A stretch of 62,149 nucleotides of DNA. Origin: a virus. Its lineage: Duplodnaviria; Caudoviricetes. Of the stretch, positions 6,318 to 30,796 are shown piece after piece. The stretch lies in the IMG/VR virus record IMGVR_UViG_3300020027_000007, positions 1-62,149 of that record, one strand, 5' to 3'. Position 1 is the first letter of the stretch; each line of letters starts with the position of its first letter. The notes below the pieces were generated by a model that was given only the letters and a program-made list of their open reading frames with translations, had not been told where the DNA came from and did no database searches. The translations under genes and the position numbers were made by a program.

Positions 6318-7107
6318 GCCGAAGGCAATTACCAAGCTGAGCGAGACGCCCCACGAGGGCAAGAAGAACTGGCTCATCTACTGCGGTAGCGGCATCGGAA
6401 AGACCGTGCTCGCGGGTACCGCACCAAAGGCGTTGTTCCTGACAGTGGAGGCGGCAGGAACAGAAAGCGCCAAGGCGTTCGGCTCGGAAGCCGACGAGTG
6501 GATTTGTGACTCGTGGGAAGAGGTCGGCAAGGCGTACGCCTGGATCAAGAAGGAAGGCCACAAACTGTACGACTGGGTGCTTCTCGACTCCGTAACGGAG
6601 ATGGAGGAGCTGTGCTGGACAGACCAGTTGGAGGGCATCGGCAAGGAATTCGAAGCCCGCATTCAGGACTATGGCATCGTTGACCGCAAGGTCAAGAAGA
6701 TGGTGGACAACTTCAACCGACTGCCCATCAACGTGCTGTACACGGCGCAGGAAATGGCCTTCACTACCGAGGACGGTGACGGCGACGAGATTCAGAAGGT
6801 CCTCCCCAAGATTGGCCGCACCAAAGGCGGAGCTCCCCTTTCCAACCTCATTTGCGGGAAGGTGACCCTCGTCGGTTACCTCGGCATTACGGAGGAGAAA
6901 GAGGAGGGCGAGTTCCGTAGGCTGGTGGTGGCCGGTGGTGATGGCTGGGTAGCCAAGGACAGGCACGATGCCTTCGGCAAGTACATCGACAAGCCGGACA
7001 TCGGCGAGATGGCTGAGATCGTGAACAAGCGGCAGGCCAGTCCCACCACGAGCAATGCCAAGGCACCGACCGCGAAGAAGAAGAAGAAGGAGAAGGTGAC
7101 AGTCTGA
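6310..7107 (+). CDS. AAA ATPase (Sak4-like single-strand annealing ATPase)
   Basis: GSGIGKT Walker A, VLLDSVTE Walker B, AKDR; lies between exonuclease and SSB. Confidence 0.82.
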   Translation: MARPKAITKLSETPHEGKKNWLIYCGSGIGKTVLAGTAPKALFLTVEAAGTESAKAFGSEADEWICDSWEEVGKAYAWIKKEGHKLYDWVLLDSVTEMEELCWTDQLEGIGKEFEARIQDYGIVDRKVKKMVDNFNRLPINVLYTAQEMAFTTEDGDGDEIQKVLPKIGRTKGGAPLSNLICGKVTLVGYLGITEEKEEGEFRRLVVAGGDGWVAKDRHDAFGKYIDKPDIGEMAEIVNKRQASPTTSNAKAPTAKKKKKEKVTV

Positions 7108-7595
7108 TGGGCAAGGTCAAGCGGAATTACAAGGACGTCGACCGCGATGCCGAGCGGAAGGAGTACAACGGCGACCAGCCCAAGCCGGGTGTGTACGACT
7201 TCTACCTGAAGAAGGTCGACGACCACGAAGGCGGAGACAGCACCGGCAACAAGCTGGTGTGGATTTTCGAGTGCACTGAGGACCCCTACACGGGTTGGGC
7301 TGGTTGGGTCTACACGAACGACGAGTCGGCCGCGTGGAAGGAAGTACAGATCCTCGAAGCCCTTGGCCTGTTGGCCGAAGGTGAGACCGAGTACGACGGC
7401 AGTCACGAGGCCATGGTGAAGGACGGCGGACCCGTTCGCTGCCGCGTCGCCAACGAGAAGTACGACGGCGATAACCGCGCCAAGATCCGGACCATCATGG
7501 CTCCGAGGGACGGCCAGGAGAAGCCGAAGGCCGGTGGCTCGAAGGCCAAGAAGGGCAAGAAGAGCGGCTCGAAGAAGGAGAAGTCCCCGTTCTGA
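7107..7595 (+). CDS. Putative ssDNA-binding protein (DUF669-like)
   Basis: PKPGVY, EKYDG..RAKI motifs; exonuclease-Sak4-SSB synteny; ends in PF. Confidence 0.7.
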   Translation: MGKVKRNYKDVDRDAERKEYNGDQPKPGVYDFYLKKVDDHEGGDSTGNKLVWIFECTEDPYTGWAGWVYTNDESAAWKEVQILEALGLLAEGETEYDGSHEAMVKDGGPVRCRVANEKYDGDNRAKIRTIMAPRDGQEKPKAGGSKAKKGKKSGSKKEKSPF

Positions 7596-11621: not shown

Positions 11622-11789
11622 ATGAAAAAGCTCGTAAAGGTACTGCGAGATTTAGTTGAGGAACTGGGCAACATTCACGGTATCTTAAACGACATCCGAA
11701 TTAGCGTTTCCTCGATGGCTGAAGACATTCAGGAGATGAAAAATTCCACCAACGCCATGGTTGATGTTTACCTGAAGGAGAACTTGTGA
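11622..11789 (+). CDS. Small coiled-coil protein (55 aa, not in ORF track)
   Basis: AAGGAGGG RBS; MKKLVKVLRDLVEELGNIHG...; GTGA overlap with the next gene. Confidence 0.65.
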   Translation: MKKLVKVLRDLVEELGNIHGILNDIRISVSSMAEDIQEMKNSTNAMVDVYLKENL

Positions 11790-12589
11790 GAGTCCTTGTT
11801 CTGGGTTGCGGTCCGGCGGGTCTGATGGCCTGTCACGCAGCCGCACTGACCGGGCACGATGTCGTTGTCGTTAGCAAACGTCGCAAGTCTGAGATGTACG
11901 GGGCGCAGTACTTGCACGCTGCTATCCCCGAGGTCGACTGCGGCAAGCCACGGCTCATTGAGTACAAGCTTGACGGTACCGTTGACGGCTACCGTGCCAA
12001 GGTGTACGGGCCGGAAAGCCGTCGTGCCGTCAGCCCCGAGAGCTTGGAGGCCAACCACCAAGGCTGGAACATCCGCCGGGCTTACGACGACCTCTGGGAC
12101 ATGTACGGACAGTACGTTGTCGACATGGAGTTCAAGGCACCGGCGGACCTTCACCAGTTCCTGCACAACGGTGGCTACGGGCAAGAGTTGGTCATCTCCA
12201 GCCTCCCAGCTCCGTTGCTCTGCGCAACGGATCACTCGTTCATGGGCGAGGATATCTGGGCCATTGGCGACGCGCCGGAACGGGGTGTGTTCAACCCCAT
12301 TGCCGTGCCCGCTGAAACCGTTGTGTGCAACGGAGACCCCAACGTCAGTTGGTACCGCACGGCCAACGTGTTCGGCCGTTCTACGACCGAATGGCCTGGG
12401 AGGCGCAAGCCCCCAATAGAAGGGGTGGCCCGTGTGACCAAGCCGCTGAGCACCGATTGCGATTGTTGGCCCCTCATCCGTCGAGTCGGGCGGTACGGCC
12501 AATGGCAGAAGGGTGTGTTGAGCCACACGGCTTACCAGGAGACGGCTGAGTATCTCGGCGGTCAAGGCATTCAGGAGGCGTTGTTCTGA
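11786..12589 (+). CDS. FAD-dependent oxidoreductase (possibly UDP-galactopyranose-mutase-like)
   Basis: N-terminal VLGCGPAGL dinucleotide-binding motif, GAQYLH, C-terminal VGRYGQW reminiscent of the UGM GR motif. Confidence 0.75.
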   Translation: MRVLVLGCGPAGLMACHAAALTGHDVVVVSKRRKSEMYGAQYLHAAIPEVDCGKPRLIEYKLDGTVDGYRAKVYGPESRRAVSPESLEANHQGWNIRRAYDDLWDMYGQYVVDMEFKAPADLHQFLHNGGYGQELVISSLPAPLLCATDHSFMGEDIWAIGDAPERGVFNPIAVPAETVVCNGDPNVSWYRTANVFGRSTTEWPGRRKPPIEGVARVTKPLSTDCDCWPLIRRVGRYGQWQKGVLSHTAYQETAEYLGGQGIQEALF

Positions 12590-13473
12590 TGGGGGCTTCG
12601 GCTGGCTACATTGGCGAGATCATCCGCCGTCGTCTCATTCAACAGACCAAGGACTGCGAGAGCCCTGTCGGCATCGCTCTTAGCGGTGGGGTTGATTCTT
12701 GCAGCATCCTCGCGGCGATGTGCTTCAACGGGGTCCGACCGGTTGTGTTCTCGTACACCCCAGACAGCCACGAATCAACGGACTTCAAAATGGCCCGAGA
12801 GTGTGCCGGAGACCTTGGCCTGGAGTTCGTGCCGGTCTATTTTCCCATGAGCACCGCACAGCTTGAAGCCGGTGCCCGGGAGGTCGTCTCTTACGGCTAC
12901 AAGACCAAGTTGGAAGTCGAATGCCTTGTGCCGATGATGCACGTGCTAAGGGTGGCAGCTCGGGTCGGCGTGCACTGCCTCTACACTGGGGATCAAGCCG
13001 ACGGGTTCTTCATCAACAATAACTGGATGGCACGCAACTTCGACCGTGCACAAGGCATTCCCGGCCCTTTGCGTAGAGCCGTCAGCAAGGATGATGACCC
13101 GTGGCGTATTGACAAACTACGGGACATCTACTGGAATGAGGACCGTAGCTGCTCCGGTGCCCTTCAGTTCTTGGGCGGCACGGTCGGCGTGTCCGTTCAG
13201 GTGCCGTACCGAGACGAGGCCATTCGAGAAGCGTTCAAGGGCAGCCTCTGGACGGACATCAATGAGCCCCGCATCAAGGAGCCCATCCGCCTTGCGTTCA
13301 AGGACATTTTGAACGTGCGCATCCCGACGCGCCCGCTGCCTGTCAACCTACACAAGGGCGACAGCTTGTTCGCCGAAACGATGGGTCGCAAACTCATGGG
13401 TGCCGAGCATCTTCGGGGGCCATGGGCAACTACTACTGGCCTCTATTCCGCTATGGCCCGAGGCAGCATCTGA
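12589..13473 (+). CDS. Asparagine-synthetase-like ATP-dependent amide ligase (synthetase domain only)
   Basis: PP-loop ALSGGVDS; TGDQAD resembles AsnB SGEGAD; VQVPYRD resembles RVPFLD; no N-terminal Cys glutaminase domain. Confidence 0.75.
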   Translation: MGASAGYIGEIIRRRLIQQTKDCESPVGIALSGGVDSCSILAAMCFNGVRPVVFSYTPDSHESTDFKMARECAGDLGLEFVPVYFPMSTAQLEAGAREVVSYGYKTKLEVECLVPMMHVLRVAARVGVHCLYTGDQADGFFINNNWMARNFDRAQGIPGPLRRAVSKDDDPWRIDKLRDIYWNEDRSCSGALQFLGGTVGVSVQVPYRDEAIREAFKGSLWTDINEPRIKEPIRLAFKDILNVRIPTRPLPVNLHKGDSLFAETMGRKLMGAEHLRGPWATTTGLYSAMARGSI

Positions 13474-14129
13474 TGGGCTGGCTGCAAGAGGACAGCCCGA
13501 TTGTTGCCCTTGACTACGACGGCACCCTCGGTGTCTATCACTACCACTTCACGAACTTCGCCAGTGAGTGGGTTGGTCGTGCATTGCCCGGTGGGTACGA
13601 CGGCGGCAAGCCGTTCTATCAACACCTCGGCCTCAGCAAAGAGACGTACCGCAAGTGCAAGCTCGCCTACCGGCGCGGCGGCCTCAAGCGCAGCATGCCT
13701 GCGTACGGCGGAGCTGCGGAACTGACTCGGATAGTTCGGTTGCGCAAGGCAAGGGTCATCATCTGCACGACGCGTCCGTTCCTCAGCCTCGAGGACATCG
13801 AGGGAGACACGGTGCACAATGCCAGGCGGCATGGCATCCAGTTCGACTACATGATTAGCGGCGAGAAGAAGTACCACGAGCTGAAGAAGCTGGTGGACCC
13901 AGAGCGCATCGTGATGGTGCTGGAAGACCAGGACGACATGCTTGCCCAGGCCACCCGCCTCTCCCTCCCCGCAGTGCGCATCCTGCGAGCACACAACGAC
14001 GCTTCCATTCTAGAAGTGGAACACGAAGTAGACAGCCTCCAGGCCGCTACTGAGCTAGCCTTGCAACGTATGGCCATTCGGCGCAGTGAACGATATCTAG
14101 CTAGTGAACGCGAGAGGAAACGCGCATGA
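13473..14129 (+). CDS. HAD-superfamily phosphatase (deoxyribonucleotidase-like)
   Basis: VALDYDGTL motif I, ICTTRP motif II, VLEDQ motif IV. Confidence 0.8.
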   Translation: MGWLQEDSPIVALDYDGTLGVYHYHFTNFASEWVGRALPGGYDGGKPFYQHLGLSKETYRKCKLAYRRGGLKRSMPAYGGAAELTRIVRLRKARVIICTTRPFLSLEDIEGDTVHNARRHGIQFDYMISGEKKYHELKKLVDPERIVMVLEDQDDMLAQATRLSLPAVRILRAHNDASILEVEHEVDSLQAATELALQRMAIRRSERYLASERERKRA

Positions 14130-14536
14130 TCGGATACGAGGAGAAGCCAGTCGGCAAGCAGGGCCGCGAGGTTGAGGTGTTGTTCGACCCCAACATCACC
14201 CGGCCGGTGCTCGTGCTGTACATGCCTGCTGCAACAGAGGGCACGGTTCAGACCGATGGTATGTGGTCCATCGTTGCCTTCTACAACCAGTGCGTCAATC
14301 TCGTGTACACCAAGAACATCACGTACCGAGACGCCTGGCGTAGGCAGGGGTACATGGGAAACACGGCTCGCATTATGAGCAAGGTGGAGCGGCTCAAGGC
14401 CATGTTGTGGCAGGACCACCAGCTCGAAGACGCCAACGAGCCGGTATCAGACACGTTGCTTGACCTCGCCAACGTGACCGCGTTCGCTGCCATCAACCAA
14501 AGCGAGGGCAACAAGTGGGGAGTGCGGCACCCATGA
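14126..14536 (+). CDS. Nucleotide-modification-associated domain 1 (Nmad1/DUF1599, MazG-like fold)
   Basis: KNITYRDAW...RIMSKVERLK...EPVSDTLLDLANVT pattern. Confidence 0.75.
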   Translation: MIGYEEKPVGKQGREVEVLFDPNITRPVLVLYMPAATEGTVQTDGMWSIVAFYNQCVNLVYTKNITYRDAWRRQGYMGNTARIMSKVERLKAMLWQDHQLEDANEPVSDTLLDLANVTAFAAINQSEGNKWGVRHP

Positions 14537-14727
14537 TTGAAATCAAGGGTCTTCGAGAGGTGTGTGCACACGACATGTGTGCCTCCAAGGCGTGTGGCGA
14601 AATGATTGGCTGCATTGCAGCGATGGCCTGGAAGGATGAGAAGACCGGTCAGGTCTACGTCATGCACGTCATGTGTGCTCCGCCCAAGCTGCGCAAGGCT
14701 TACCACGAGGCTGGGCGCAATGGCTGA
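14533..14727 (+). CDS. Small Cys/His-rich hypothetical protein
   Basis: ATGA coupling; CAHDMC..KAC...HVMC. Confidence 0.6.
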   Translation: MIEIKGLREVCAHDMCASKACGEMIGCIAAMAWKDEKTGQVYVMHVMCAPPKLRKAYHEAGRNG

Positions 14728-14983
14728 CTTCGGCTGGGAAGACATGCCTGACAGCCTGGCGGAATTGCTGTACGAGTTCCACGAGGGGTCGCATGCCTTG
14801 ACGAGGTTGGTTGCGTACCTGCCGAAGTTCAACGACTGGGTTGAGGAGAACGTTGCCAAGTGCAACTCTGAAGCCTTCTATGCACACGACGCCTCAGCCG
14901 GTAAGTGTGGCGAGCTGCCGGTGCCGGGTTCAGAGTTTTGTCCGGTGCACATGCCTGCCGAGGAGTTGGGCGACAATGGCTGA
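14720..14983 (+). CDS. Hypothetical protein with C-terminal Zn-binding motif
   Basis: C...KCGE...FCPVH; overlapping start and stop. Confidence 0.6.
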   Translation: MADFGWEDMPDSLAELLYEFHEGSHALTRLVAYLPKFNDWVEENVAKCNSEAFYAHDASAGKCGELPVPGSEFCPVHMPAEELGDNG

Positions 14984-15257
14984 CGTTCGGGTCAACGTGT
15001 ACGAAGATGGCATTGTGGCCGTTGAGTTTGACCACGCATGCATCGTTCGGGACAAGCGTCGTATGTTGAACGACGAGGAGTTCTGGGATGACGTGTTCGG
15101 GATGCCTGACCCCTTCGCCGTAGAGGAACCGGACATGGACTGCATTGGCATCGACAGCCCTACGCCGTGCCCGGAATGCGGAGCTACCGGTGCTTGTGGC
15201 AACGACAGTGAAGGCCGCCCCATGATTCATGTAGTACAGGAGGATGATGAAGGCTAA
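14976..15257 (+). CDS. Acidic hypothetical protein with CPECG motif
   Basis: AGGAG RBS; PCPECGATGACGNDSEGRPMIH. Confidence 0.65.
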   Translation: MADVRVNVYEDGIVAVEFDHACIVRDKRRMLNDEEFWDDVFGMPDPFAVEEPDMDCIGIDSPTPCPECGATGACGNDSEGRPMIHVVQEDDEG

Positions 15258-18200
15258 GACAGTCAGCCAGTTCCACTCGCTGCACCATCACTCGACGTAC
15301 TCGTACATGGACGGGTACGGCACCCCCGAGCAGCACGCGAAGGCAGCGGCTGACTTGGGGATGCCTTCGATGGCCTGGACAGAGCACGGTAACGTCAGCA
15401 GCCATGTAAAGGGCGAGCGAGCAGCCCTTGCCCTAGGCATCAAACCCATCTTTGGGTGCGAGCTGTACACCGGCCCGGTGGGTGAAGATGCCAGCCGGTA
15501 CAAGTGGCATCTCACGGTGCTAGCCATGAACGAAACGGGGCTCCGCAACCTTTACGCTATGGTTTCGAAGGGATGGAAGGACGGCTTCTACTATGAGCCT
15601 ACGGTTAGTGGTGAAATGCTTGCGGACTACTCGGAGGGGCTTATTGTCCTTTCAGGTTGCTCCGGCTCGAAAATGGCATGTGACCTTGTCGGTGGCAAAG
15701 GAGTTGAACCCCACGAGGTTGACTATGGGGCTGCTCTGGAGACTGCCCTCAGGTTCCGGGAGCTTTTTGGAGATCGTTTCTATCTCGAAGCGCAAGCCTT
15801 TCCCGAGCTTGAACGTACGCGGAATATCAACAAGGCTTGGGCGCAAATGTCGAAAGAGACAGGCATCCCGCTTGTCGTAACTGGCGACGTGCATTACCCG
15901 AAGCCGGGCGACAACGAGATGCAGGTCATGCTGCACGCCATTGACCGTGGCGGTCGCAACAACACAGTCGAGAAGCAGGCGCAGGGTTGGGGCTACGATA
16001 TCCAGCTCACATCCTTTAGCGACAAGGTGATTTGGCAGAAGTTGAAGGCCACCGGCCTCACCGGCAAGCAGGCTGAGTCGGCAGTGCGTATGACTGGAGA
16101 GATTGCCGGTCGCATCAATGTCACTTTGCCAAAGCTGCAGGAGCTGGAGTTCCCGCTGCCAGAGCACACTCCGAAGCAGGAGTTCTTCCGCACGATGGTG
16201 CGCGAGGGATGGAAGTACCGGGGCTTTGACAACCTGCCCAAGAAGCTGCGCAAGGAGTATTCGAAGCGGCTTAAGTACGAACTGAACCTCATCGAGCTCA
16301 AGAACTTTGAGGACTATTTCATGGTGGTAGCGGACCTCGTTGTTCGCGCCAAGAACAAGGGCATTGCGGTCGGCCCTGCCCGGGGCTCCGCCGCAGCCTC
16401 GTTGGTGTGCTACTGCATGCGCATTACCGAGGTCAATCCGATGCTGTTCCCCAACCTGCTGTTCGAACGGTTCATTGATATCAACCGGCACGACTTACCG
16501 GATATTGACTTGGACTTTGACGACGAGCGCCGCTGGGAAGTGCGCGCCGACCTCGTGGACATGTACGGCGAAGACCGCGTGGGCAACATCGGAACGTTCA
16601 CCAACTACAAAGGTAAGAATAGCCTTGACGATGTAGCGCGAGTCAACAACGTTCCCAAGTACGCGGTAGATGCCATCAAAGAGAAGTTGATTGAGCGCAG
16701 CTCCGGAGACCTGCGTGGCAGCAGTACCATCGAGGACACCATCGCCATGTTCCCCGACGTTGAGAAGGTGTTTCAGGAGTTCCCCGTGTTGTACGAAGCG
16801 CAACGCCTAGAGGGCAACCTCAAGGGCTTTAGCGTGCACGCAGCGGGGCTCGTGGTGGCCAACCAGACCCTTACCGACTCGGTGGCGGTGTATGCCCGGA
16901 TCGACAGTAAGACAGGGAAAGAAGGCAACGTCCTCAGCATCGACAAGCACGATGCGGAGTACATCAACGCGTTGAAAATTGACGTGTTGGGCTTGACCAC
17001 GATGGGTGTTATCAGCAACTGTCTCAAGATGATTGGCATGTCGCTGCAGGAGCTGTACGACATCCCGCTGGACCAAGAGAACGTGTTCGATGGGTTCAAA
17101 CGCAACGAAGTCGTCGGCCTGTTTCAGTTTGACGGCAGGGCAATGCGCTCGGTCAATCGTGAGGTGAAGCCGGACAACTTCGCAGAGGTGTGCGACATCA
17201 ACGCACTTGCCCGCCCTGGCCCTTTGCACTCCGGTGCCGCTGCCGAGTACATCATGGTGAAGCACGGTAAGAAGAAGGCCGTCATCTTGCACCCGGTCGT
17301 CGGGGAGATTACCGCCCACACGAACAGCCAGATCGTTTACCAGGAACAGATTCTCCAGGTCGTTCGGAGGCTTGGAAACTTCAGCTGGGAAGAGGCTGCC
17401 CAGATTCGTAAGCTCATCTCTAAGAAGCAAGGTGAGCAGGCGTTCAACCGCATGATGGGTAAGTTCGTGAAGGGGGCCATGGACAACGACATGTCCGAGG
17501 TCAATGCCATCAAGGTTTGGAAGCAGCTCGTGACCGCCGGTGCTTATGCGTTCAACGCCGCGCACTGTGTCTCGTACGGGATGCTTGCCTACTGGACCAT
17601 GTGGCTCAAGCAGAACTTCCCGCTGGAGTTCTACTGTGCGGCTCTGCAGAAGTACGACCCGAAGACCAAGGGCTTCGACTTGCTGAAAGAGGCGCTGGAC
17701 AAGGGCATTGACATCTTGCCGCCGGACCCATACAAGAGCGAGCGGTCGTGGACGTACGACAAGGAAGCCAACAGCTTGCGTGCTGGCTTTGAGCAGATCA
17801 GCGGCATCGGTGAGAAGACAGCGAACGCCATGCTGGCTTACCGCGAAGACCGGCTGCAAGAAGAGTCGGTAAGCGGAGTCGAGCCGGACGTTAGCTGGGA
17901 CGACTACCTTGCCGTCAAGGGCATCGGACCTGCCACGATGGATAAGGTCCGCGCCTTCTGCCTGGACCCCGATCCCTTCGGCGTGTACCGGCTGGGGCAG
18001 GCTCTCAAGAAGGTGCGCCGGTACATTTGGGAGTACGGCGACATGGACGGCATTCCCTTGCCTACAAGCAAGAGCGAGGACATCCCGTACGAACCCATCA
18101 AGGGCGAGCACGTATGGGTTGGCGTAGTGCGGGACCGCAACCTCAAGGACCTGTACGAGCTGCACCGCAGCCGCACGGGAGATGAACTGGACCCGGCTAC

Positions 18201-18447
18201 GGTCAAGGAGCCAGAGCACATCAACTGGTGCGTCATCGTGGGAGAAGACGAGACCGGACCACTGACTATGACCGTGCACCGCATGCGCGGTCTCTACGAG
18301 AGGTACAAGGAAAAGATTTGGAGCATTGACCCTAAGCGCGATGTCATCGTTGTCCGAGGCTACAAAGCGCAGCAGTACCGGAGGGCAATCTACGTGCAGG
18401 AATTGCATGTGCTGAACCCAGACACGCTCCCAGATTTCCAGGACTGA
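15244..18447 (+). CDS. dnaE: DNA polymerase III alpha subunit (DnaE) with PHP domain
   Basis: HHHSTYSYMDG, TEHG, GPARGSAAASL, FERF, PDIDLDF, HAAG, KIDVLGL, VYQEQ, YAFNAAH. Confidence 0.97.
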   Translation: MMKAKTVSQFHSLHHHSTYSYMDGYGTPEQHAKAAADLGMPSMAWTEHGNVSSHVKGERAALALGIKPIFGCELYTGPVGEDASRYKWHLTVLAMNETGLRNLYAMVSKGWKDGFYYEPTVSGEMLADYSEGLIVLSGCSGSKMACDLVGGKGVEPHEVDYGAALETALRFRELFGDRFYLEAQAFPELERTRNINKAWAQMSKETGIPLVVTGDVHYPKPGDNEMQVMLHAIDRGGRNNTVEKQAQGWGYDIQLTSFSDKVIWQKLKATGLTGKQAESAVRMTGEIAGRINVTLPKLQELEFPLPEHTPKQEFFRTMVREGWKYRGFDNLPKKLRKEYSKRLKYELNLIELKNFEDYFMVVADLVVRAKNKGIAVGPARGSAAASLVCYCMRITEVNPMLFPNLLFERFIDINRHDLPDIDLDFDDERRWEVRADLVDMYGEDRVGNIGTFTNYKGKNSLDDVARVNNVPKYAVDAIKEKLIERSSGDLRGSSTIEDTIAMFPDVEKVFQEFPVLYEAQRLEGNLKGFSVHAAGLVVANQTLTDSVAVYARIDSKTGKEGNVLSIDKHDAEYINALKIDVLGLTTMGVISNCLKMIGMSLQELYDIPLDQENVFDGFKRNEVVGLFQFDGRAMRSVNREVKPDNFAEVCDINALARPGPLHSGAAAEYIMVKHGKKKAVILHPVVGEITAHTNSQIVYQEQILQVVRRLGNFSWEEAAQIRKLISKKQGEQAFNRMMGKFVKGAMDNDMSEVNAIKVWKQLVTAGAYAFNAAHCVSYGMLAYWTMWLKQNFPLEFYCAALQKYDPKTKGFDLLKEALDKGIDILPPDPYKSERSWTYDKEANSLRAGFEQISGIGEKTANAMLAYREDRLQEESVSGVEPDVSWDDYLAVKGIGPATMDKVRAFCLDPDPFGVYRLGQALKKVRRYIWEYGDMDGIPLPTSKSEDIPYEPIKGEHVWVGVVRDRNLKDLYELHRSRTGDELDPATVKEPEHINWCVIVGEDETGPLTMTVHRMRGLYERYKEKIWSIDPKRDVIVVRGYKAQQYRRAIYVQELHVLNPDTLPDFQD

Positions 18448-18458
18448 AAGGCACCAAC

Positions 18459-19106
18459 ATGCAGGGCATCGAAGAGTATTATGAGAAGTGGAACAAGGAC
18501 ATCGAGTTTGCAAACGAGGTCCTATTCGACCAGTTCGGCGGTGGAGAGAACGCCTTCGTCATTGACGAGGTAGCTCTGTTCTTCCGGGACCGAACGCAGG
18601 CCATGCAGTGGATTCTTGACCAGGTTGGCAAGGACGGAGTCACACTGTTCAACTACGCCCAAGACGAGGTACACACGCACCCGTTCAACACGGACTACGA
18701 CGTGCACTACTACTTCCTCTCGACGCCGTTCAAGTACCGAGTAGAAGCGATGGCCTTGGGCAACGGTCTGAGCCCGCTGCACGAGAGCTTGCGTCCGTAC
18801 GCCAGCAACGAAGCTCACGACCCCGTTGGTCCGAGGCCTACGGTGCACTACAGCTTCAAATGTCAGGACGCTCCTACGTATCACCGGGTGACCGATTGGC
18901 TCGGGAAGATGGAGTTCGGACACGTGCAGACCTGCCGCTCCACGTACGGGCTGTTCTCCTACTGGAGCATGAGCGAGAACGTAGACCCCAATGGCACCAT
19001 GGACGTCTACCTCAAGCCGCGCGTTAACACCCGAGACGAGCGTGTCCCCGTTGACCTCGGCCCACGCCCCGACGGTGGCTATCTCAGCGCGAAGGCGGGC
19101 AAGTGA
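18459..19106 (+). CDS. Hypothetical protein, possibly VOC/glyoxalase fold
   Basis: IDEVAL...YRVEAM...HYSF pattern weakly resembles VOC metal ligands; coupled to the SDR gene. Confidence 0.5.
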   Translation: MQGIEEYYEKWNKDIEFANEVLFDQFGGGENAFVIDEVALFFRDRTQAMQWILDQVGKDGVTLFNYAQDEVHTHPFNTDYDVHYYFLSTPFKYRVEAMALGNGLSPLHESLRPYASNEAHDPVGPRPTVHYSFKCQDAPTYHRVTDWLGKMEFGHVQTCRSTYGLFSYWSMSENVDPNGTMDVYLKPRVNTRDERVPVDLGPRPDGGYLSAKAGK

Positions 19107-19780
19107 GCGTCTTAGTGGTTGGCTCCTCCCCCGACTCCCTCGGCGCCGCAGTCCGAGACGCCTTGCAAGCAAGGGCTCTTCGAGTCGTGACGGCTGGCAT
19201 CACCGGAGAGGAGCGCTACCTGGATGTCACGGACCCGGACAATTGCAAGGACGTCATACTGCGTACTCGACCTAAGCAAATCGTAGTGACGGCTGGCATC
19301 AACCATGGCTTCACTCTGCGGGCGGAGGGTTTGCGGGGGGCGATGCACGAACACATGGCCGTCAACTATATCGGAGTCATCACGGTGCTGACGGCATGGC
19401 TTGAAGCACGGGCTGAATACTCCGAGACTTCGAACGGTCAGTTCGTTGCCATCAGCTCCAACTCGGCGCACATCGCACGACGCGGTTCGATGGCGTACTG
19501 CGCAAGCAAGGCGGCGCTCAGTATGGCGCTACGCTGTGCGGCCCGAGAAACGGCCGAAGAGGGGTTGCTGGTGTACGGCTATGAACCGGGTCTCTTGGCC
19601 GGTACGCCCATGACGCAGCAAGCCGCGCAGGACTTTCCTGGTCCGCTGCACCGCATGCCGGGGGTGGGCCAACTCGGCTTGTCTACAAGGGATTTCGCCC
19701 GCACCATCGCCACGAACTTGCAGCACCCGAACCAAGCTCTGCACGGTGCAATGCTCCGTCTCGACGCTGGCGAGCAGTAA
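19103..19780 (+). CDS. Short-chain dehydrogenase/reductase (SDR)
   Basis: LDVTD, TAGIN, ISSNSA, YCASKAAL (YxxxK), YEPG. Confidence 0.88.
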   Translation: MSVLVVGSSPDSLGAAVRDALQARALRVVTAGITGEERYLDVTDPDNCKDVILRTRPKQIVVTAGINHGFTLRAEGLRGAMHEHMAVNYIGVITVLTAWLEARAEYSETSNGQFVAISSNSAHIARRGSMAYCASKAALSMALRCAARETAEEGLLVYGYEPGLLAGTPMTQQAAQDFPGPLHRMPGVGQLGLSTRDFARTIATNLQHPNQALHGAMLRLDAGEQ

Positions 19781-19859
19781 CAAGAACTGGATGAGTTGAA
19801 ATGCGGGCGGGTCTGCTATTGACCTGCTAGCTTGGCAACGACAAGGAGGGCAATTGACA

Positions 19860-20324
19860 ATGAAGAGTTACACGCTGATGCAGGAGAAACATCTCTTGGA
19901 AGACCTTGAGGACCGCAAGGTCATTCGGGGTAACAACACCGACGAAGAGCCAAGGCAGGGTCGCATCGTTGCCGTGAACAACAGCGGCCACATCGGCCGC
20001 GTCTGGGTGTTGTGGTCCGGCGAGCTCGACCCGGCCTCACACCGACCCAACGAGCTGATGCTGCTTGACAAGAACGACGCGTTCCGCAAGAAGCTCTCGT
20101 GGCACGGCAAGCGCTTTGGTGAGCTGGATGCCTTTGTGCAGCAGGCGAAGCGCGAAGGTGTGCTGCCCGACGCCAAGCTGAATGACAACGAGCCGGGTAC
20201 GCACGTGCACGTCAACGTGCCGTTGCCGCTGGTGCCTACTGAGCCGGGCAAGCACGACCACGACTTCACCGAGAAGTGCATGCCGCTGTGTCCGGCGTTT
20301 CGCTTAGACCCCGGGGATAGCTGA
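19860..20324 (+). CDS. Hypothetical protein
   Basis: AAGGAGGG RBS; TGATG coupling to the next gene. Confidence 0.7.
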   Translation: MKSYTLMQEKHLLEDLEDRKVIRGNNTDEEPRQGRIVAVNNSGHIGRVWVLWSGELDPASHRPNELMLLDKNDAFRKKLSWHGKRFGELDAFVQQAKREGVLPDAKLNDNEPGTHVHVNVPLPLVPTEPGKHDHDFTEKCMPLCPAFRLDPGDS

Positions 20325-20758
20325 TGGGCAAGGTGTACATCGCGGGGCCCATGTTCGGGTACCCCGACAAGAACAAGGCGTCGTTTCAGTTCTGCCAGGA
20401 CATGCTGGAGAACCTTCACGACGTGCCGCCGTCTCTCATCGCCAACCCGGTAAGCATTCCGGCGTACGAACACGGCGAGGAAGCTTGCCCCGGTGGGCAG
20501 CGCAAGGTCAGCGAGTTCGACGAGCACGGTGCGGGTTGCTACTACCGAACCGACATGTTCGAGCTCCTGCAGTGTGAGCACGCCATCTTCCTGCCTGGTT
20601 GGGAGAACAGCGTCGGGTCACGACTGGAGATGCAGGTCGTTACGGCTTGCGGAATCCAATTGCTGTTCATGGACATGAAGACGGGCGAGGTGTACAACAC
20701 GCTAGCCGAGACGTTGCGTCTCGACTGGTGGCGTCCGTCCGACGAGCAGCCGCAGTAG
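20324..20758 (+). CDS. DUF4406 / nucleoside 2-deoxyribosyltransferase-like protein
   Basis: KVYIAGPMFG...NP...D...LLQCE..FLPGWENSVGSRLE signature. Confidence 0.8.
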   Translation: MGKVYIAGPMFGYPDKNKASFQFCQDMLENLHDVPPSLIANPVSIPAYEHGEEACPGGQRKVSEFDEHGAGCYYRTDMFELLQCEHAIFLPGWENSVGSRLEMQVVTACGIQLLFMDMKTGEVYNTLAETLRLDWWRPSDEQPQ

Positions 20759-20892
20759 TTCCACATCATTGCCAACGGCCCATAGGGTCGATTGGTGCGC
20801 TAGGTTTGCTTCACTGCCCCGGCTGGTGGCCTGTACGCCAGGCATCTTCGGACCGGTCGGGGCTCACAAATACCAACGAAACAAGGAGAACC

Positions 20893-21585
20893 ATGTTCAA
20901 GACCATCGGCCGCCTCGCGGCCGTCGTAGCGGTGGCGGCCCTCGCCTTCACCGGTGCGGCCACTGCCAACGCTGTTGACTACGACGTCGCCAAGGCCGCT
21001 GCCACCGTGCAGCCGGGGGCCGAGACCGTTGGACCCCGCGAGATCAAGGACCACACCGTCGGCAACGGCGAACTCATCGACAACGGCGTCGGCTGGAACA
21101 AGCTGGGTTCACAGATCCGCATCGACATCGCCAACAGCGACGTTCGGAAGCCGGGTGTCGTTCACGAGGCGGCGCTCGACGCGGCACTGAAGGCCAAGGT
21201 CAACGCACCCAACGTCGGCGGTCTGACCAGCGCGTACTACGCCGTTGCCTTCTACGACAAGGGCGACACGAACGCCGGAGCCATCGCGACGGTTGCCTGC
21301 AAGGTGGAAGCCGACATCGCCATCAGCGGTGGTGCGCAGACCGTGGGCCTCGACGCCGGAGCCAACTCCCGCAACACCCCGGTGAACAGCAGCTTCCCGG
21401 GTCGCATGGACTGGACTACCAACGCGCCCAAGGCCAACCGGCTCGACGGCTGGGTCGTGCAGTTCGGCGGTAACGCTGGCACCGTGAGCGACAAGGCTCC
21501 CGAGAAGGTCAAGGTCTGGGCGCTGTGCCTGCCGGGTGCGGAGCTGCCAGTCGTGCAGACCTACACCCAGTCCGAGGACGACTGA
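20893..21585 (+). CDS. Secreted protein with Sec signal peptide
   Basis: AAGGAG RBS; MFKTIGRLAAVVAVAALAFTGAATANA|V (AxA cleavage site); two Cys. Confidence 0.8.
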   Translation: MFKTIGRLAAVVAVAALAFTGAATANAVDYDVAKAAATVQPGAETVGPREIKDHTVGNGELIDNGVGWNKLGSQIRIDIANSDVRKPGVVHEAALDAALKAKVNAPNVGGLTSAYYAVAFYDKGDTNAGAIATVACKVEADIAISGGAQTVGLDAGANSRNTPVNSSFPGRMDWTTNAPKANRLDGWVVQFGGNAGTVSDKAPEKVKVWALCLPGAELPVVQTYTQSEDD

Positions 21586-21629
21586 CCAACTGACTGACCA
21601 CCGCTGTACCCCCTCCTAGGTGGTCCCTT

Positions 21630-21667
21630 GCGGCTCGGCTCGTTGCCCTCACCAACGACCGAGCCGC
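21630..21667 (+). terminator. Hairpin after secreted-protein gene
   Basis: gcggctcgg-ctcgttg...caacga-ccgagccgc. Confidence 0.5.
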
Positions 21668-21698
21668 TTGGAATACCCTTGATAGGAAAGTAGGAGCC

Positions 21699-22277
21699 AT
21701 GAGCAATCTCATCGACCACGCAAAGCGCGAGCTGGAGCTGGTTGGGCAGTACGAAGAAGACCCCGCGTTCGCGGTCTCGGTACTGGCTGCCGTGTCCGCG
21801 TTCGCTGCGTACCCAGGGCATTCGGGCGGTAGCGCGTTCGCGGGCATCAGCATGATCAGCGACCTGTTGCAGTTCAAGAACCTCAGCCCGCTGACCAACG
21901 ACCCGGCCGAGTGGGTGCACCACGGACCTGACACGTGGGGGCAGCCGGGCGGCATCTGGCAGAACGTGCGCAACGGCAGCGCGTTCAGCGAGGACGGCGG
22001 CCTGACGTACACGCTGGTTGACGAGGACAAGAGGGCTGAGCCGTACCGCACTCGCATCACCCACGACAACAGCGGGCAGCTGTTGTCTAAGGCAAGGATG
22101 CTGCCGGTCGAAAACCACGACGACTCCATGAACGCTGCGATGCCCTACGAGGGAGACACGCAGGACGCCATCGTCGGCATCCGCTGTGCGTGCGGAAAGA
22201 TCATCCGAGAAGATGAGTTTGTCGCGCACTGCAACGCCAACAGCCCGGGTAAGCACTTCGAGAAGCGGGGCGAGTGA
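21699..22277 (+). CDS. Hypothetical phage protein
   Basis: AGGAG RBS; HAKRELEL...GHSGGSA...LSPLT...EW pattern that I recall from other phage hypotheticals. Confidence 0.75.
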   Translation: MSNLIDHAKRELELVGQYEEDPAFAVSVLAAVSAFAAYPGHSGGSAFAGISMISDLLQFKNLSPLTNDPAEWVHHGPDTWGQPGGIWQNVRNGSAFSEDGGLTYTLVDEDKRAEPYRTRITHDNSGQLLSKARMLPVENHDDSMNAAMPYEGDTQDAIVGIRCACGKIIREDEFVAHCNANSPGKHFEKRGE

Positions 22278-22417
22278 TGGACCACGATTGGGCAGAGATC
22301 GGCAGGCAGTACGAGGTACTGCGCACCGGTACCGCAACCCGCATCGATGGCCCCGGGTACAAGATTTATCGGGTCGGAGAGATCATCCGCATCGACGTCT
22401 CGAAGAACGGAAACTGA
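22277..22417 (+). CDS. Small hypothetical protein (46 aa, not in ORF track)
   Basis: MDHDWAEIGRQYEVLRTG...; TGATG coupling on both sides. Confidence 0.6.
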   Translation: MDHDWAEIGRQYEVLRTGTATRIDGPGYKIYRVGEIIRIDVSKNGN

Positions 22418-23484
22418 TGGCCGAAGGCAACGAGTTGCAGCGGTGGGCTGACAAAGCGATGTTCCAGAGCGAGGCGATGCCGTTCAACGTCAACGAGACG
22501 GGGCCGCGCGTGCACCTGATTGGCATGACGGCTGACCCGCTGGGCCACATCGCGGCAGCGGCCAAGATGTATAAGGGCGAGGTAGTGCGCAGCCTCTCGG
22601 ACGTCACGTTCGCCGAGCGGGGTTCGTACCTGCGCGAAATCATGGCGACCAAGCTCAAGGCACCGTTTGAGTTCGTCAAGTTCCATTTCATGATTGAGGG
22701 GGTGACTCGTAGCTTCACGCATCAGATGGTGCGGCAGCGCACAGCGGCGTACGCGCAAGAGTCGCTTCGCTTTGCTGTGAAGGAGAACCTAGATGAGGAA
22801 GTGCTGTTGCCTCCCTCCCTCGCTGGCCTGCCCGCAGACCACCCTCAACGCGTCTTGTGGCGGCAGGGGCTCAACCGCCTCGACGACGTGTACAACGCTC
22901 TCATTGCCGACGGGGTGCCTGCTGAAGACGCACGCGGCCTGCTGCCGCACAACGTCACGACTCGGTTGCACTACACCACCGACCTGCGGGCATTGCAGGA
23001 CCATGCTGGCAACCGGTTGTGCACCCAAGCTCAGTTCGAATGGCGCAGTGTCTTCGTGCGCATTGTCGATGCCATTCGCAACTACAAGCCACACGCGGCC
23101 ATCATCAAGTCCACGACGACCAACCTTCCCAAGGATGTGTTGGACGCCATGGCCTTCCTTGACTCTAACGAGTCCTGGCAGTACGAGGCCATTGCAGACT
23201 TGTTCCGACCCGTCTGCTACCTCACCGGCAAGTGCGAGTTTCAGGCGGAGTTCGACCGGCCCTGTTCCATCCGTAGTCGGGTGCAGGCCAACCACGACAT
23301 CGGGCGACCGAGCAAGGATTGGGACACCGAGCACGACACGGTTGACCCTCTGACCATTGTGGCTGGTGTCGGGCCGCAATCCGTTATTCGAGAAGAGTTT
23401 GCCGAGGGCAACATTCATCGCCCGGTTTTCATCGGCGCCATCCAGCCGCACGAGTGGCTGACAGACCCCGGTGCAGCCCGGTGA
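22417..23484 (+). CDS. thyX: ThyX-family flavin-dependent thymidylate synthase with non-canonical RQR motif
   Basis: PFEFVKFHFMIEGVTRSFTHQMVRQRTAAYAQESLRF, GVPAEDARGLLP, RLCTQAQFEW. Confidence 0.88.
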   Translation: MAEGNELQRWADKAMFQSEAMPFNVNETGPRVHLIGMTADPLGHIAAAAKMYKGEVVRSLSDVTFAERGSYLREIMATKLKAPFEFVKFHFMIEGVTRSFTHQMVRQRTAAYAQESLRFAVKENLDEEVLLPPSLAGLPADHPQRVLWRQGLNRLDDVYNALIADGVPAEDARGLLPHNVTTRLHYTTDLRALQDHAGNRLCTQAQFEWRSVFVRIVDAIRNYKPHAAIIKSTTTNLPKDVLDAMAFLDSNESWQYEAIADLFRPVCYLTGKCEFQAEFDRPCSIRSRVQANHDIGRPSKDWDTEHDTVDPLTIVAGVGPQSVIREEFAEGNIHRPVFIGAIQPHEWLTDPGAAR

Positions 23485-25147: not shown

Positions 25148-25237
25148 CGGGGAACAGGCAGGGTCGGGCTTAGAACGCAGCTTGCGGGCTGGTTTGTGTA
25201 CTGGGCCCGACCCAGCTTCTCAGGAGGGCAGGAAGCA

Positions 25238-25810
25238 ATGGACGTACCCGAGGGCAGACTCGTGGTCTGCAGCTTTGATCCCGGTATTCGTAGCGGGTGG
25301 TGTTGGTATGACCTCGACCGAATTGAGATGTGCACGCAGGGAACGCGCATTGGTCTCAAAGGCGGCGAGACGAACTTCGGCCAGTTTGATTCGTCCAAGG
25401 GCGAGCGATACGCGGTCGACCAGATGGTGCAGCTCACTAGGCGGTGCTGGGAATGGGCGGACGTCGACGAGGAGACGGACACGTTCATAGTCACAATTGA
25501 AAACTTCACGTTGCGCGACATCGTGAATACGGGCCCGGAGCTCCTATCTCCGGTACGCATGACAGCCCGGTACCTGGATAGGCTGGAGACGTCAGGCATC
25601 GCCATCTGGACCCGGTGCAGCGCATCGGAAGCCAAGAACACCGTGACCGACCAGCGGCTCAAGTTGTGGAACCAATACAGCTCGTCGTCCGGAGAGCATG
25701 CGCGTGATGCGCAACGGCACGGCATCCTCATTGCTCGCAAGTATGCAAGCGACCTCGGCTTCCGCCAATGGGCGGGCGTCGGCCTATCGAAGAAGGAAGT
25801 CTCAGAATGA
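25238..25810 (+). CDS. RuvC-like Holliday junction resolvase
   Basis: SFDPGIRSGW, VTIENF, HARDAQRH acidic catalytic pattern. Confidence 0.72.
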   Translation: MDVPEGRLVVCSFDPGIRSGWCWYDLDRIEMCTQGTRIGLKGGETNFGQFDSSKGERYAVDQMVQLTRRCWEWADVDEETDTFIVTIENFTLRDIVNTGPELLSPVRMTARYLDRLETSGIAIWTRCSASEAKNTVTDQRLKLWNQYSSSSGEHARDAQRHGILIARKYASDLGFRQWAGVGLSKKEVSE

Positions 25811-26589
25811 TTAAGCGCATCGTGAACACCGACCCGACCTCCCCGGTCCCCGCAGACACCATCGGCATTCTCGAGTCCGTAATCGAGGAGCGTGACAGGG
25901 CAATGCAGAAGTGGGGTGTGCAGTCGCACCCGGATGGTACGGCCGACAGCAAGCTCAACGTCTTCAGCCGTGAAAAGCAGCGGGAGCGCGTTGACCGGCA
26001 GGCAGAGACGAGGAACAGCAACTGGTTCGACATCCTTCTCGAGGAAGTGAAGGAGGCTCGGGCCGAGTCAGACCTCGTTGCCCTGGACAAGGAGCTGTGC
26101 CAGGTGATGCAGGTGTGCCTGGTCTGGCGTGAGGACATCTGGCGTCGGATGGCTGCTATTGACCAGACCGACTCTACGGGTGAGGTAGCTGAAGAAAAGG
26201 CGATGCGGGAGCTGGCTGATCGCGTAAGCACCTCAATGTCACCGGCTCTCAGGTCGCTGAGCAAGGGCTTCAACCCCGGGCGTCAATACATGCTCGATAA
26301 CATCCGGGCTCTCAGGGTGCATTCCAGGGGTCGTTCGAAAGAAGACCTGGATGCCCTTGTGCAGTTGGAGGCTTGGGTGAAGGGACTGCCCGCTTCGTGG
26401 TGGGATGCCAACTTCAAGGCTGAGCCTGCGGAGGCCCAGAGCGAGGGCGGCGATGAGTGGCAGGAAGCTCACGATGTAGAGGTCTCGGCAGCTCTTCAGA
26501 CCCCGTTCCCGGGTGTCGCTGTGCCGTTGCACGGGGCAACTTTTGTTGAGTTTGAAGGTGAGCTGGGTGGTGACTCGAAGAAGGGGTAA
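25807..26589 (+). CDS. Protein with N-terminal MazG-like NTP pyrophosphohydrolase domain
   Basis: EERDRAMQKWG.Q.HPDGT...WFDILLEEVKEA...DKELCQVMQV (EExxE...EL). Confidence 0.6.
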   Translation: MIKRIVNTDPTSPVPADTIGILESVIEERDRAMQKWGVQSHPDGTADSKLNVFSREKQRERVDRQAETRNSNWFDILLEEVKEARAESDLVALDKELCQVMQVCLVWREDIWRRMAAIDQTDSTGEVAEEKAMRELADRVSTSMSPALRSLSKGFNPGRQYMLDNIRALRVHSRGRSKEDLDALVQLEAWVKGLPASWWDANFKAEPAEAQSEGGDEWQEAHDVEVSAALQTPFPGVAVPLHGATFVEFEGELGGDSKKG

Positions 26590-30563: not shown

Positions 30564-30796
30564 TGCCGTACTGGCTGACGAGTCGCGACGTGTACGAGGA
30601 GAACGATGACCTTGTACTCGTCGCGCACGTTAGACCAACGAACGACGGCTCGCACATAGCCGACAGATACGGCCAGTGCTGGTGCGTACTGCGCAAAGAA
30701 CTCCGGGTGTGGCCCCAGGGGCGGCACTACCGCAAAACCGTTCTATACATACATCTCTACGACGGGGACAACGATGAGCATCGTCAAGGCATCTGA
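30563..30796 (+). CDS. Hypothetical protein (H...H...CWC...H)
   Basis: TAATG coupling; AHVRPTNDGSH...CWC. Confidence 0.55.
   Translation: MPYWLTSRDVYEENDDLVLVAHVRPTNDGSHIADRYGQCWCVLRKELRVWPQGRHYRKTVLYIHLYDGDNDEHRQGI

Follow-up and report, generated by a model that had tools for sequence, protein, structure and literature searches.

The DNA analysed here (the window, 62,149 bp) is the whole of IMG/VR record IMGVR_UViG_3300020027_000007, an uncultured actinophage-like virus rated 100% complete by CheckV. The genome has a G+C content of ~60%, nearly all of its genes lie on the + strand, and its layout is of the siphovirus type. The region under study (11,786 to 23,484, all genes +) is best explained as an actinophage replication cassette of the DnaE type in which a conserved deoxypyrimidine-nucleotide module is embedded. 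The core of the module consists of a virus-only flavoprotein with a fold like that of UDP-galactopyranose mutases (UGMs), a HAD phosphatase, a non-canonical ThyX and usually a short-chain dehydrogenase/reductase (SDR). The lineage of the window adds Nmad1, a VOC-fold protein and a DUF4406 protein, and a minority of relatives adds an AsnB-type amide ligase. The module is a plausible candidate for a base-modification pathway. The genes that bear on this reading are as follows:

11786-12589 (+): virus-only predicted flavin adenine dinucleotide (FAD) flavoprotein, 267 aa, compact GR2/UGM-like fold; phrog_8720, 7.5e-94
12589-13473 (+): stand-alone AsnB-type synthetase domain (the AsnS-like protein), predicted CmoY-type amide ligase, 294 aa; PF00733, 5.5e-11
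13473-14129 (+): HAD-superfamily phosphatase (NT5C/PNKP-phosphatase type), 218 aa; DYDGT motif, phrog_415, 4.9e-16
14126-14536 (+): Nmad1/DUF1599-like helical protein, 136 aa; PF07659, 20.3 bits, below the cutoff of 25
15244-18447 (+): DnaE-type replicative polymerase, 1067 aa; PHP, pol3_alpha, finger and HHH domains
18459-19106 (+): probable VOC (glyoxalase)-fold protein, 215 aa; from an ESM Atlas structure search
19103-19780 (+): SDR, 225 aa; PF00106, 4.9e-16, 59.2 bits against a cutoff of 26.6
20324-20758 (+): DUF4406 (nucleoside 2-deoxyribosyltransferase-like) protein, 144 aa; PF14359, 3.7e-14, 53 bits; phrog_355, 3.2e-12
22417-23484 (+): non-canonical ThyX-like protein, 355 aa; PF02511, 5.3e-34; ~125-aa Cys-bearing C-terminal extension
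30774-31217 (+): dCMP deaminase, 147 aa; PF00383, 8.7e-11; phrog_174, 3.6e-20; HAE and PCHEC motifs

Gene calls were checked with Pfam and PHROGs on 73 open reading frames (ORFs) of the window, supplemented by tblastn with CmoA-like and C5-methylase queries. Ten gene calls of a preliminary description, which had proposed a DNA base-modification pathway from the letters of this DNA, were reproduced at the same positions by profile matches and motifs. The junctions from the flavoprotein to Nmad1 have overlaps of 4, 1, 1 and 4 bases, which is consistent with the translational coupling that it proposed. Megablast of the region against cultured phages returned no match at the DNA level, and the best cultured relatives of the window DnaE (in Streptomyces, Microbacterium and Arthrobacter phages) are at most 49% identical to it.

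The ThyX-like protein passes the curated cutoffs of its family (PF02511, 118.1 bits against 24.8; TIGR02170, 90.5 against 87.9). It shares with canonical ThyX of Thermotoga maritima and Mycobacterium tuberculosis the Thy1 domain (118 bits) and, in T. maritima numbering, Gln75, Arg78, Arg80, Ser88, Arg90, Arg147 and Arg174. Unlike them it carries RQRTAAYAQES in place of the RHRxxxxxxxS motif, has His53 replaced by Leu, His79 by Gln, Asn85 by Ala, Glu86 by Gln and Tyr91 by Phe, bears the ~125-aa extension and is accompanied by a virus-only flavoprotein. The description of this protein as an atypical ThyX was thus correct, and the loss of His53 and Tyr91 adds to the change of RHR to RQR. The pattern is a property of the family. 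Across 50 distinct orthologues the middle residue of the motif (His79) is Q in 21, S in 21, T in five, N in two and E in one, and never H; His53 is Leu in 49; and Tyr91 is F in 27, A in 20 and S in three, and never Tyr. The dUMP-binding residues Arg78, Arg80, Ser88 and Arg90 are kept in 49 to 50 of the same 50. Tyr91 and Ser88 of ThyX are described as strictly conserved, Tyr91 mutants as 100- to 1000-fold slower, and the conserved His53 as stacking on both folate and the reduced flavin (PMC11940539, PMC8316439). As a control, ThyX proteins of three other phages were compared: the Clostridium phage enzyme is canonical, and the non-canonical pattern, together with part of the Cys motif described below, recurs in Pseudomonas phage LMA2 and Escherichia coli phage Mansfield. 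The variant therefore marks a large phage clade, for which no enzyme assay was found in the literature. The C-terminal ~125 residues of the window protein gave no significant Pfam match (best E 0.085) and no significant profile match in the PDB (best E 0.56). The family has four conserved Cys, three in the extension and one in the core, and all four are replaced together in Wollypog (L003) and Karate (L013). This joint replacement suggests a metal site, and the four-Cys set may be a metal or Fe-S site.

The flavoprotein is matched by Pfam FAD families over its N-terminal GxGxxG stretch only (E ~2e-4), and a search of its profile against the PDB likewise matched only the first ~30 residues. An AlphaFold2 model (pLDDT 93.3) shows a compact flavoenzyme of two domains, for which the top PDB matches are UGMs at Z 13.8 (241 residues, rmsd 3.6), 12.6 and 12.3; class-A monooxygenases follow at Z 12.3 to 12.0, and the unannotated PF1083 protein 3nrn ties at 12.6. 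Tetracycline destructases, VioD, PhzS, RebC and other aromatic hydroxylases are matched at Z 10.8 to 12.3. Because UGMs and class-A monooxygenases score so close together, the fold names no function. The protein also lacks the marks of a UGM: there is no match to PF03275 (GLF), no significant sequence similarity to UGMs beyond the terminal motifs, and a length of 267 aa against about 365 to 390 aa for the full three-domain architecture (the best-matching UGM chain, 4dsg, has 473 residues). The family numbers 949 relatives in a large protein collection, its Atlas clusters are 96 to 98% viral, and a pattern scan with the flavoprotein alignment found it in none of 185,579 species genomes. No fused forms were seen among proteins of 469 to 2000 aa, which is weak evidence, and a predicted complex of the ThyX-like protein with the flavoprotein scored 0.00 against a mark of 0.32, a value with no bearing either way.

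The HAD phosphatase has as its best PHROG a family named 'polynucleotide kinase'. Its orthologues point to the deoxypyrimidine 5'-nucleotidase family: seven of nine IMG/VR copies match PF06941 at E<0.01, four of them above the cutoff, and PBI1 gp59, Wojtek gp66 and Onyinye gp80 score 31.9, 26.2 and 35.2 bits against the cutoff of 24.8. PF06941 also includes the dTMP phosphatase by which PBS1 keeps thymidine out of its DNA (PMC12697855). The HAD may instead act on DNA 3'-phosphates. Searches of the HAD and DUF4406 proteins against PDB sequences with phmmer gave insignificant matches only (best E 0.15 and 0.041). The SDR has the catalytic Ser and YxxxK of a classical SDR (ISSNSA...YCASK) with a degenerate N-terminal glycine motif. 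Among the Nmad1 orthologues, five of 14 match PF07659 at E<0.01 and two pass the cutoff; a literature search for Nmad1/DUF1599 found nothing relevant. The product of 18459-19106 had been put forward as a possible VOC-fold protein. Neither the window copy nor 11 orthologues has a Pfam match, and the support is structural: an ESM Atlas model (pTM 0.69) matches Glyoxalase_4 clusters with TM 0.52 to 0.58 by query and 0.38 to 0.75 by target (0.66 to 0.75 for single-domain Glyoxalase_4 targets), which makes a VOC fold plausible on the strength of the model. The gene co-occurs with Nmad1 in 12 loci.

The flavoprotein is present in 126 cultured phage records, all from Actinomycetota hosts (Gordonia 46, Microbacterium 36, Mycobacterium 32, Streptomyces 9, Arthrobacter 2, Nocardia 1), in which it is annotated as 'oxidoreductase'. 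The long ThyX-like form is found in 113 cultured records, and all 507 ThyX matches, compared with the flavoprotein counts by genus and not record by record, include 46 from Gordonia, 36 from Microbacterium and 28 from Mycobacterium. In Rooney, Wollypog, PBI1, Wojtek, Karate and Onyinye the flavoprotein shares a cassette with the phosphatase, DnaE and a 'ThyX-like thymidylate synthase', the ThyX-like genes of Rooney and Onyinye being divergent. The same gene families are listed for clusters D, DV, EF, AE, BN and DG in a genome announcement (PMC11385102). In IMG/VR, 84 flavoprotein loci were obtained, and the 49 with at least 9 kb downstream and at least 3 kb upstream were used for counts. DnaE is present in all 49, the HAD in 46, the ThyX-like gene in 42, the SDR in 32, DUF4406 in 12, Nmad1, the VOC-like gene and the dCMP deaminase in 11 each, and the AsnS-like gene in three. 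The flavoprotein and the HAD are likewise present in each of the 15 loci fetched through DnaE, several of which lie on contigs already counted. Three contigs without a close ThyX (one of them 60% complete) have a weak ThyX-family match elsewhere (E 4e-10, 9e-10 and 4e-5). The members stay the same across lineages while their order changes: in Karate the gene for the flavoprotein lies directly before the ThyX-like gene and overlaps it by four bases, and the SDR lies upstream of DnaE in PBI1 and Wojtek and downstream of it in the window. The dCMP deaminase is loosely linked, being inside the locus only in the 11 cases above. The linked gene set noticed earlier is therefore conserved, functionally linked and of deoxypyrimidine-metabolism type, without being special to this phage. 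A pathway 'built around DnaE' is not what the records show, DnaE occurring in 1,438 phage records against 126 for the flavoprotein. No paper on the function of the module was found in the literature.

The AsnS-like protein has the SGGVDS PP-loop and aligns over residues 1-294 to the synthetase half only; an N-terminal nucleophile (Ntn) glutaminase domain was not found, and there is no GATase Pfam match. Its model (pLDDT 94.8) matches the synthetase half of the AsnB family over its whole length (Z 22.1, 20.5, 20.3, 18.0 and 17.8), the top three being human ASNS residues 223-525 (261 residues, rmsd 3.1), AsnB and CarA, whereas other PP-loop enzymes reach no more than 10.9. CmoY of Synechococcus phage S-B43 is reported as an asparagine-synthetase homologue that ligates glycine to 5-carboxymethylcytosine in DNA, after CmoA has made the carboxy-SAM donor and CmoX has transferred the group (PMC12783734). 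The closest cultured relatives of the window protein are in 48 Erwinia jumbo-phage records and three Synechococcus phage records, and the CmoA context was seen in two phages. In Synechococcus phage RB11-B the AsnS-like gene (25% identity to the window protein) comes after a CmoA homologue (2.8e-33) and before a C5-methylase. In Erwinia phage pEa_SNUABM_5 (L091, 6879-19694) a CmoA homologue (TIGR00740, 5e-42) stands immediately ahead of the AsnS-like gene (29.6% identity), and the two lie near a macro-domain protein and an adenine methylase. This Erwinia phage arrangement suggests that the 48 Erwinia phage records may carry an uncharacterised carboxymethyl-type DNA modification. The window resembles S-B43 in that its ligase, like CmoY according to the published description, is a stand-alone AsnB-type synthetase domain. 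The window differs in that the ligase lies between the flavoprotein and the HAD phosphatase and that CmoA and the C5-methyltransferase (CmoX) are lacking, tblastn with the RB11-B and Erwinia phage proteins being empty and no Pfam match being present. The methyltransferases of PBI1 and Wojtek were considered as CmoA-like candidates and set aside, since they have only generic Methyltransf_11 matches and no counterpart in the window.

In the lineage of the window the ligase is an optional extra. Where present it is always inside the module (five of 84 loci, and three of the 15 fetched through DnaE) and occupies two positions, usually directly after the flavoprotein and once after Nmad1. A gene that is optional and yet always inside the module fits an optional decorating step on a carboxyl made by the module. 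Single-protein patterns found no AsnS-like relatives in IMG/VR, where they were recovered by tblastn within fetched loci; the species-genome pattern scan with the AsnS-like alignment gave only 27 distant PP-loop matches, and phmmer against PDB sequences gave nothing at E up to 0.1.

A parallel arrangement occurs in phages of unrelated hosts. In Mansfield (Wifcevirus, a myovirus; L143, 44000-56000) the run is a UGM-like flavoprotein, a small ORF, a ThyX-like gene, a HAD, an SDR, a further small ORF, a glyoxalase-family protein, DNA polymerase III (Pol III) epsilon and DnaE. Its gp72 was called UDP-galactopyranose mutase-like by the depositors (HHpred probability 100%), and its SDR has weak Epimerase and RmlD matches. 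Identity to the window proteins is 31% for ThyX, 29% for the SDR (E 9e-11) and 33% for DnaE. LMA2 (Pbunavirus) has the flavoprotein-like ORF65 with an FAD motif, a ThyX-like gene, a HAD and DnaE. The Wifcevirus and Pbunavirus modules thus resemble that of the window in holding the same enzyme classes beside DnaE, with ThyX-like, SDR and DnaE proteins homologous at 29 to 39% identity. They differ in a flavoprotein of 329 to 333 aa against 267, a PNKP-type HAD and an extra Pol III epsilon, and no Nmad1, DUF4406 or ligase is present in the stretches examined. Neither chance nor common ancestry by itself readily accounts for five enzyme classes recurring beside DnaE in phages of unrelated hosts. 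A reported phenotype would fit, provided that the isolates concerned carry the module: four Wifcevirus isolates were insensitive to all restriction-modification systems tested except EcoP1_I, with no known genome protection (PMC11990801). Mansfield is the only Wifcevirus examined here.

That the module yields a non-canonical base in DNA is the likeliest of the readings considered; we hold it to be quite possible, if short of probable. The substrates, steps and virion product that we infer would be as follows. The phage dCMP deaminase would supply dUMP, from which a 5-substituted deoxyuridine other than plain thymidine would be made. The ThyX-like enzyme would install a carbon on dUMP, the flavoprotein and SDR, perhaps with the VOC protein, would alter the oxidation state of that carbon, and the HAD would clear away a canonical nucleotide that competes with the product, or take off a phosphate. 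The ligase, where present, would amidate a carboxyl group. No evidence was found for the order of chemical steps given in the preliminary description. The pathway proposed there is partly supported. What speaks for it is that the conserved set is real, that the ThyX is non-canonical, that a CmoY relative is present and that Wifcevirus offers a parallel; restriction-site avoidance and an unsupported MazG, both set out below, speak against it.

The case against a modified base begins with those restriction sites. In the window the observed/expected ratio is 0.44 for GATC (z -12.6), 0.71 for CATG and 0.66 for TGCA, and GCCGGC and CCGCGG are absent against 41.7 and 18.8 expected. The module-bearing relative L016 (1-20810) has no AGCT in 20.8 kb, where sister loci have 76 to 173 copies, and in Karate the ratio is 0.07 for CTAG and 0.5 for TGCA. 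GCCGGC and CCGCGG consist of G and C only and so give no information on thymidine, whereas GATC, CATG, TGCA and AGCT contain T. Site avoidance that includes T-containing sites indicates DNA exposed to restriction, and genomes shielded by a bulky base would have no need of it. The avoidance argues against a broadly protective modification and points to restriction systems of the host. As a further count, CAGCTG occurs 15 times in the window against 37.8 expected.

Gene content weighs in the same direction. The window scans found no ribonucleotide reductase, glycosyltransferase, C5-methyltransferase, CmoA, QueC/D/E, ThyA-type enzyme or deoxynucleoside monophosphate (dNMP) kinase. With no dNMP kinase, glycosyltransferase, CmoA or C5-methyltransferase there is no visible route from a modified dNMP to the triphosphate and no known source of a carboxyl handle. 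DpdA, PurZ, aGPT-Pplase and 5-HMUDK did not turn up in the general Pfam and PHROGs scans either, which included no search by name, so their absence is indirect; the absence of hallmark genes of known pathways that had been reported for this DNA thus holds for the 73 ORFs scanned and is indirect for DpdA and PurZ. The window HAD has no HAD-family Pfam match, its only match at E<=0.01 being a spurious one to PMSI1 (17.5 bits against 29.6), and the HADs of Mansfield and LMA2 match the PNKP-phosphatase family PF25109 and not PF06941. The flavoprotein, HAD and VOC proteins of Mansfield have no significant sequence similarity to those of the window (hhalign probabilities 12%, 36% and 0.4%), and sequence comparison did not show homology of these three window proteins to their counterparts in Mansfield and LMA2. 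The actinophage loci belong to one syntenic super-lineage and so are not independent. For Pbunavirus and for actinophages of clusters D, DV and EF, the literature searches turned up nothing on unusual DNA. Lastly, the non-canonical ThyX clade, which extends to Pbunavirus and Wifcevirus, could simply consist of working thymidylate synthases.

This last point leads to the strongest rival, ordinary dTMP supply and pool balancing, which we regard as rather unlikely and yet a serious competitor. A divergent working ThyX, fed by the dCMP deaminase and assisted by helper enzymes, would meet the needs of a ~60% G+C genome whose A+T share exceeds that of typical actinobacterial hosts. The HAD would tune dNMP pools or repair 3'-phosphate ends, the flavoprotein would be a ThyX reductase or helper, and the SDR, VOC, DUF4406 and ligase genes would be unrelated accessory enzymes persisting through synteny. 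The ThyX model scores and the retention of all dUMP-binding residues agree with this account, as does the occurrence of the same ThyX variant in two of the three control phages, LMA2 and Mansfield, in which no homologue of the actinophage flavoprotein could be demonstrated. The strong site avoidance, the failure of the window scans to find a modified-dNMP kinase and the lack of any odd-DNA report in the literature found are also as it would predict. The account has to accommodate the loss of Tyr91, published as strictly conserved and critical, and of the conserved His53, and a futile cycle between a thymidylate synthase and a deoxypyrimidine nucleotidase in one operon. It must further allow for the same five enzyme classes beside DnaE in an unrelated E. 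coli myovirus, a Wifcevirus restriction resistance with no known cause (PMC11990801) and a CmoY-type ligase inserted within the module.

The modified-base reading can be drawn more specifically. In that form a ThyX lacking Tyr91 and His53 would act jointly with the UGM-like flavoprotein, yielding a 5-substituted deoxyuridine that is oxidised and possibly carboxylated, which some lineages would amidate through the CmoY-type ligase; the pathway would be common to more than 100 cultured actinophages, Wifcevirus and Pbunavirus and would explain the restriction resistance of Wifcevirus. This version is speculative and, taken as a whole, unlikely. For the modified-base reading in general, odd chemistry of this kind has a precedent in ThyA homologues that act as flavin-dependent 5-hydroxy-dCMP synthases (PMC13326640).

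What probability remains belongs to sugar-nucleotide, detoxification and other roles. The module could serve glycosylation of DNA or of the virion with an activated sugar: the flavoprotein would be a nucleoside diphosphate-sugar mutase, the SDR would epimerise or reduce, the HAD would dephosphorylate a sugar phosphate, and the ThyX-like enzyme would give a hydroxylated base as acceptor. Rhizobium phage RL38J1 glycosylates its DNA with a UGM, a thymidylate-synthase homologue and glycosyltransferases (PMC13326640), and the UGM matches of the flavoprotein, the UGM-like gp72 of Mansfield and the Epimerase/RmlD matches of its SDR fit such a role. It is improbable here: no glycosyltransferase or nucleotidyltransferase is present among the 73 window ORFs, the flavoprotein is too short for a bacterial UGM (267 aa against about 365 to 390) and resembles UGMs significantly in the terminal motifs only, and class-A monooxygenases lie within 1.5 Z units of the UGM matches. 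Chemical anti-phage defence is common in actinomycetes, on which the cultured relatives grow, antibiotic-binding proteins are among those with a VOC fold, and the flavoprotein fold matches tetracycline destructases and aromatic hydroxylases, VioD, PhzS and RebC among them; it is nevertheless very improbable that the flavoprotein, SDR, VOC protein and ligase neutralise or sequester DNA-damaging small molecules of the host, and so protect replication, with ThyX and the HAD as unrelated neighbours, given the same set in E. coli and Pseudomonas phages, the four-base overlap of the Karate flavoprotein and ThyX-like genes and the ligase relatives beside CmoA in DNA-modification clusters.

Among known systems, the dU-DNA pathway of PBS1, described as a dCTP deaminase (Dcd) with the dTMP phosphatase Dtm of PF06941 (PMC12697855), has likenesses in the PF06941 orthologues of the HAD and in the cytidylate deaminase of the window. 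Unlike PBS1, the window has a ThyX homologue, which a phage with dU-DNA would not need, its deaminase is dCMP-like and not dCTP-like, its own HAD is without a HAD-family Pfam match, and no uracil-glycosylase inhibitor was recognised. The thymidine hypermodification pathways, with 5-hydroxymethyldeoxyuridine (5-hmdU), 5-HMUDK, aGPT-Pplase/AADT and the FAD oxidoreductase gp47 of PaMx11 (PMC8989533), share the logic of a carbon placed at C5 by a thymidylate-synthase-type enzyme and then tailored by enzymes that include a flavin oxidoreductase. They differ in that the window scans found no ThyA-type hydroxymethylase, P-loop base kinase, aGPT-Pplase, pyridoxal phosphate enzyme or radical S-adenosylmethionine enzyme and in that the synthase of the window is of ThyX type. 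The glycosylated 5-hydroxycytosine phages RB69, DLP3 and RL38J1 likewise use a thymidylate-synthase homologue with unexpected flavin-linked chemistry, joined in RL38J1 by a UGM-type mutase (PMC13326640). The synthase of these phages has the ThyA fold and works with several glycosyltransferases and a dNMP kinase dedicated to the pathway; the window encodes no counterpart to any of these.

The remaining genes in and around the region are:

14515-14727, 14720-14983 and 14976-15257 (+): three overlapping small Cys-bearing ORFs, 70, 87 and 93 aa
19860-20324 (+): 154-aa ORF, not in the preliminary description
~20893-21585 (+): signal-peptide protein; the signal peptide is clear and N-terminal, and the gene lies midway through the replication cassette
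21699-22277 (+): Tad3-like anti-Thoeris protein; PF25185, 1.8e-29, 102.4 bits against a cutoff of 27, residues 2-114
25196-25810 (+): RuvC-like resolvase ORF, 30 to 38% identity to resolvases of Rooney and Wojtek and to unannotated PBI1 gp66

The window encodes, in order, an SNF2 helicase, a Cas4-type exonuclease, a Sak4-like annealing protein and a primase-helicase ahead of the studied region, which is followed by the RuvC-like resolvase, the dCMP deaminase, terminase, portal, capsid and tail proteins and an endolysin. Among relatives, the three small Cys-bearing ORFs are confined to the closest two (L004/L099 and L088/L092) and are probably outside the module. The signal-peptide protein matches no family, and related loci have no gene syntenic with it, its single match among the 49 loci lying ~9.5 kb upstream of the flavoprotein gene. 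The Tad3 homologue, whose C-terminal tail bears Cys/His, sits between the secreted-protein gene and ThyX and is found in two of the 49 loci; Tad3 is described in a review as an inhibitor of the Thoeris sensor ThsB (PMC13728456). The Tad3 homologue and the secreted protein, neither of which the preliminary description had named, are passengers unrelated to the module. By its sequence matches the ORF at 25196-25810 is read as a resolvase and not as part of the nucleotide module. The reading of the protein at 25807 (25807-26589) as MazG-like is rejected for lack of support: with the threshold relaxed to E 10, none of eight family members had a relevant Pfam match (the four matches seen, each in a single member at E 0.019 to 0.15, were due to chance), the profile search of the PDB was empty, and hhalign against the Nmad1 family gave a probability of 0.1%. 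The family alignment contains an EExxE...ExxD-like string, which might be read as a MazG motif. The polymerase gene, one ORF in the window, is annotated as two pieces in Wollypog, Karate and Onyinye (L111), with an HNH endonuclease gene between the two pieces in Wollypog. The ORF at 7107-7595 (+, 162 aa) has a weak PHROG 'methyltransferase' match (1.6e-6), no Pfam or NCBIfam match and no relation to the methyltransferases within the PBI1 and Wojtek modules.

To our knowledge no ThyX-family enzyme is known to start DNA hypermodification. In the literature examined, the hypermodifications derived from a thymidylate synthase all start from the ThyA fold. If the module does produce a new base, it would represent a new enzyme logic in which two flavoenzymes work together, would supply a cause for the reported restriction resistance of Wifcevirus, and would bear on therapeutic Pbunavirus phages and on more than 100 actinophages of teaching collections. 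Cultured phages that bear the module are available on harmless laboratory hosts, so the question is easy to settle. If only dTMP is made, a large clade of ThyX enzymes would be working without residues thought essential, which matters for ThyX enzymology.

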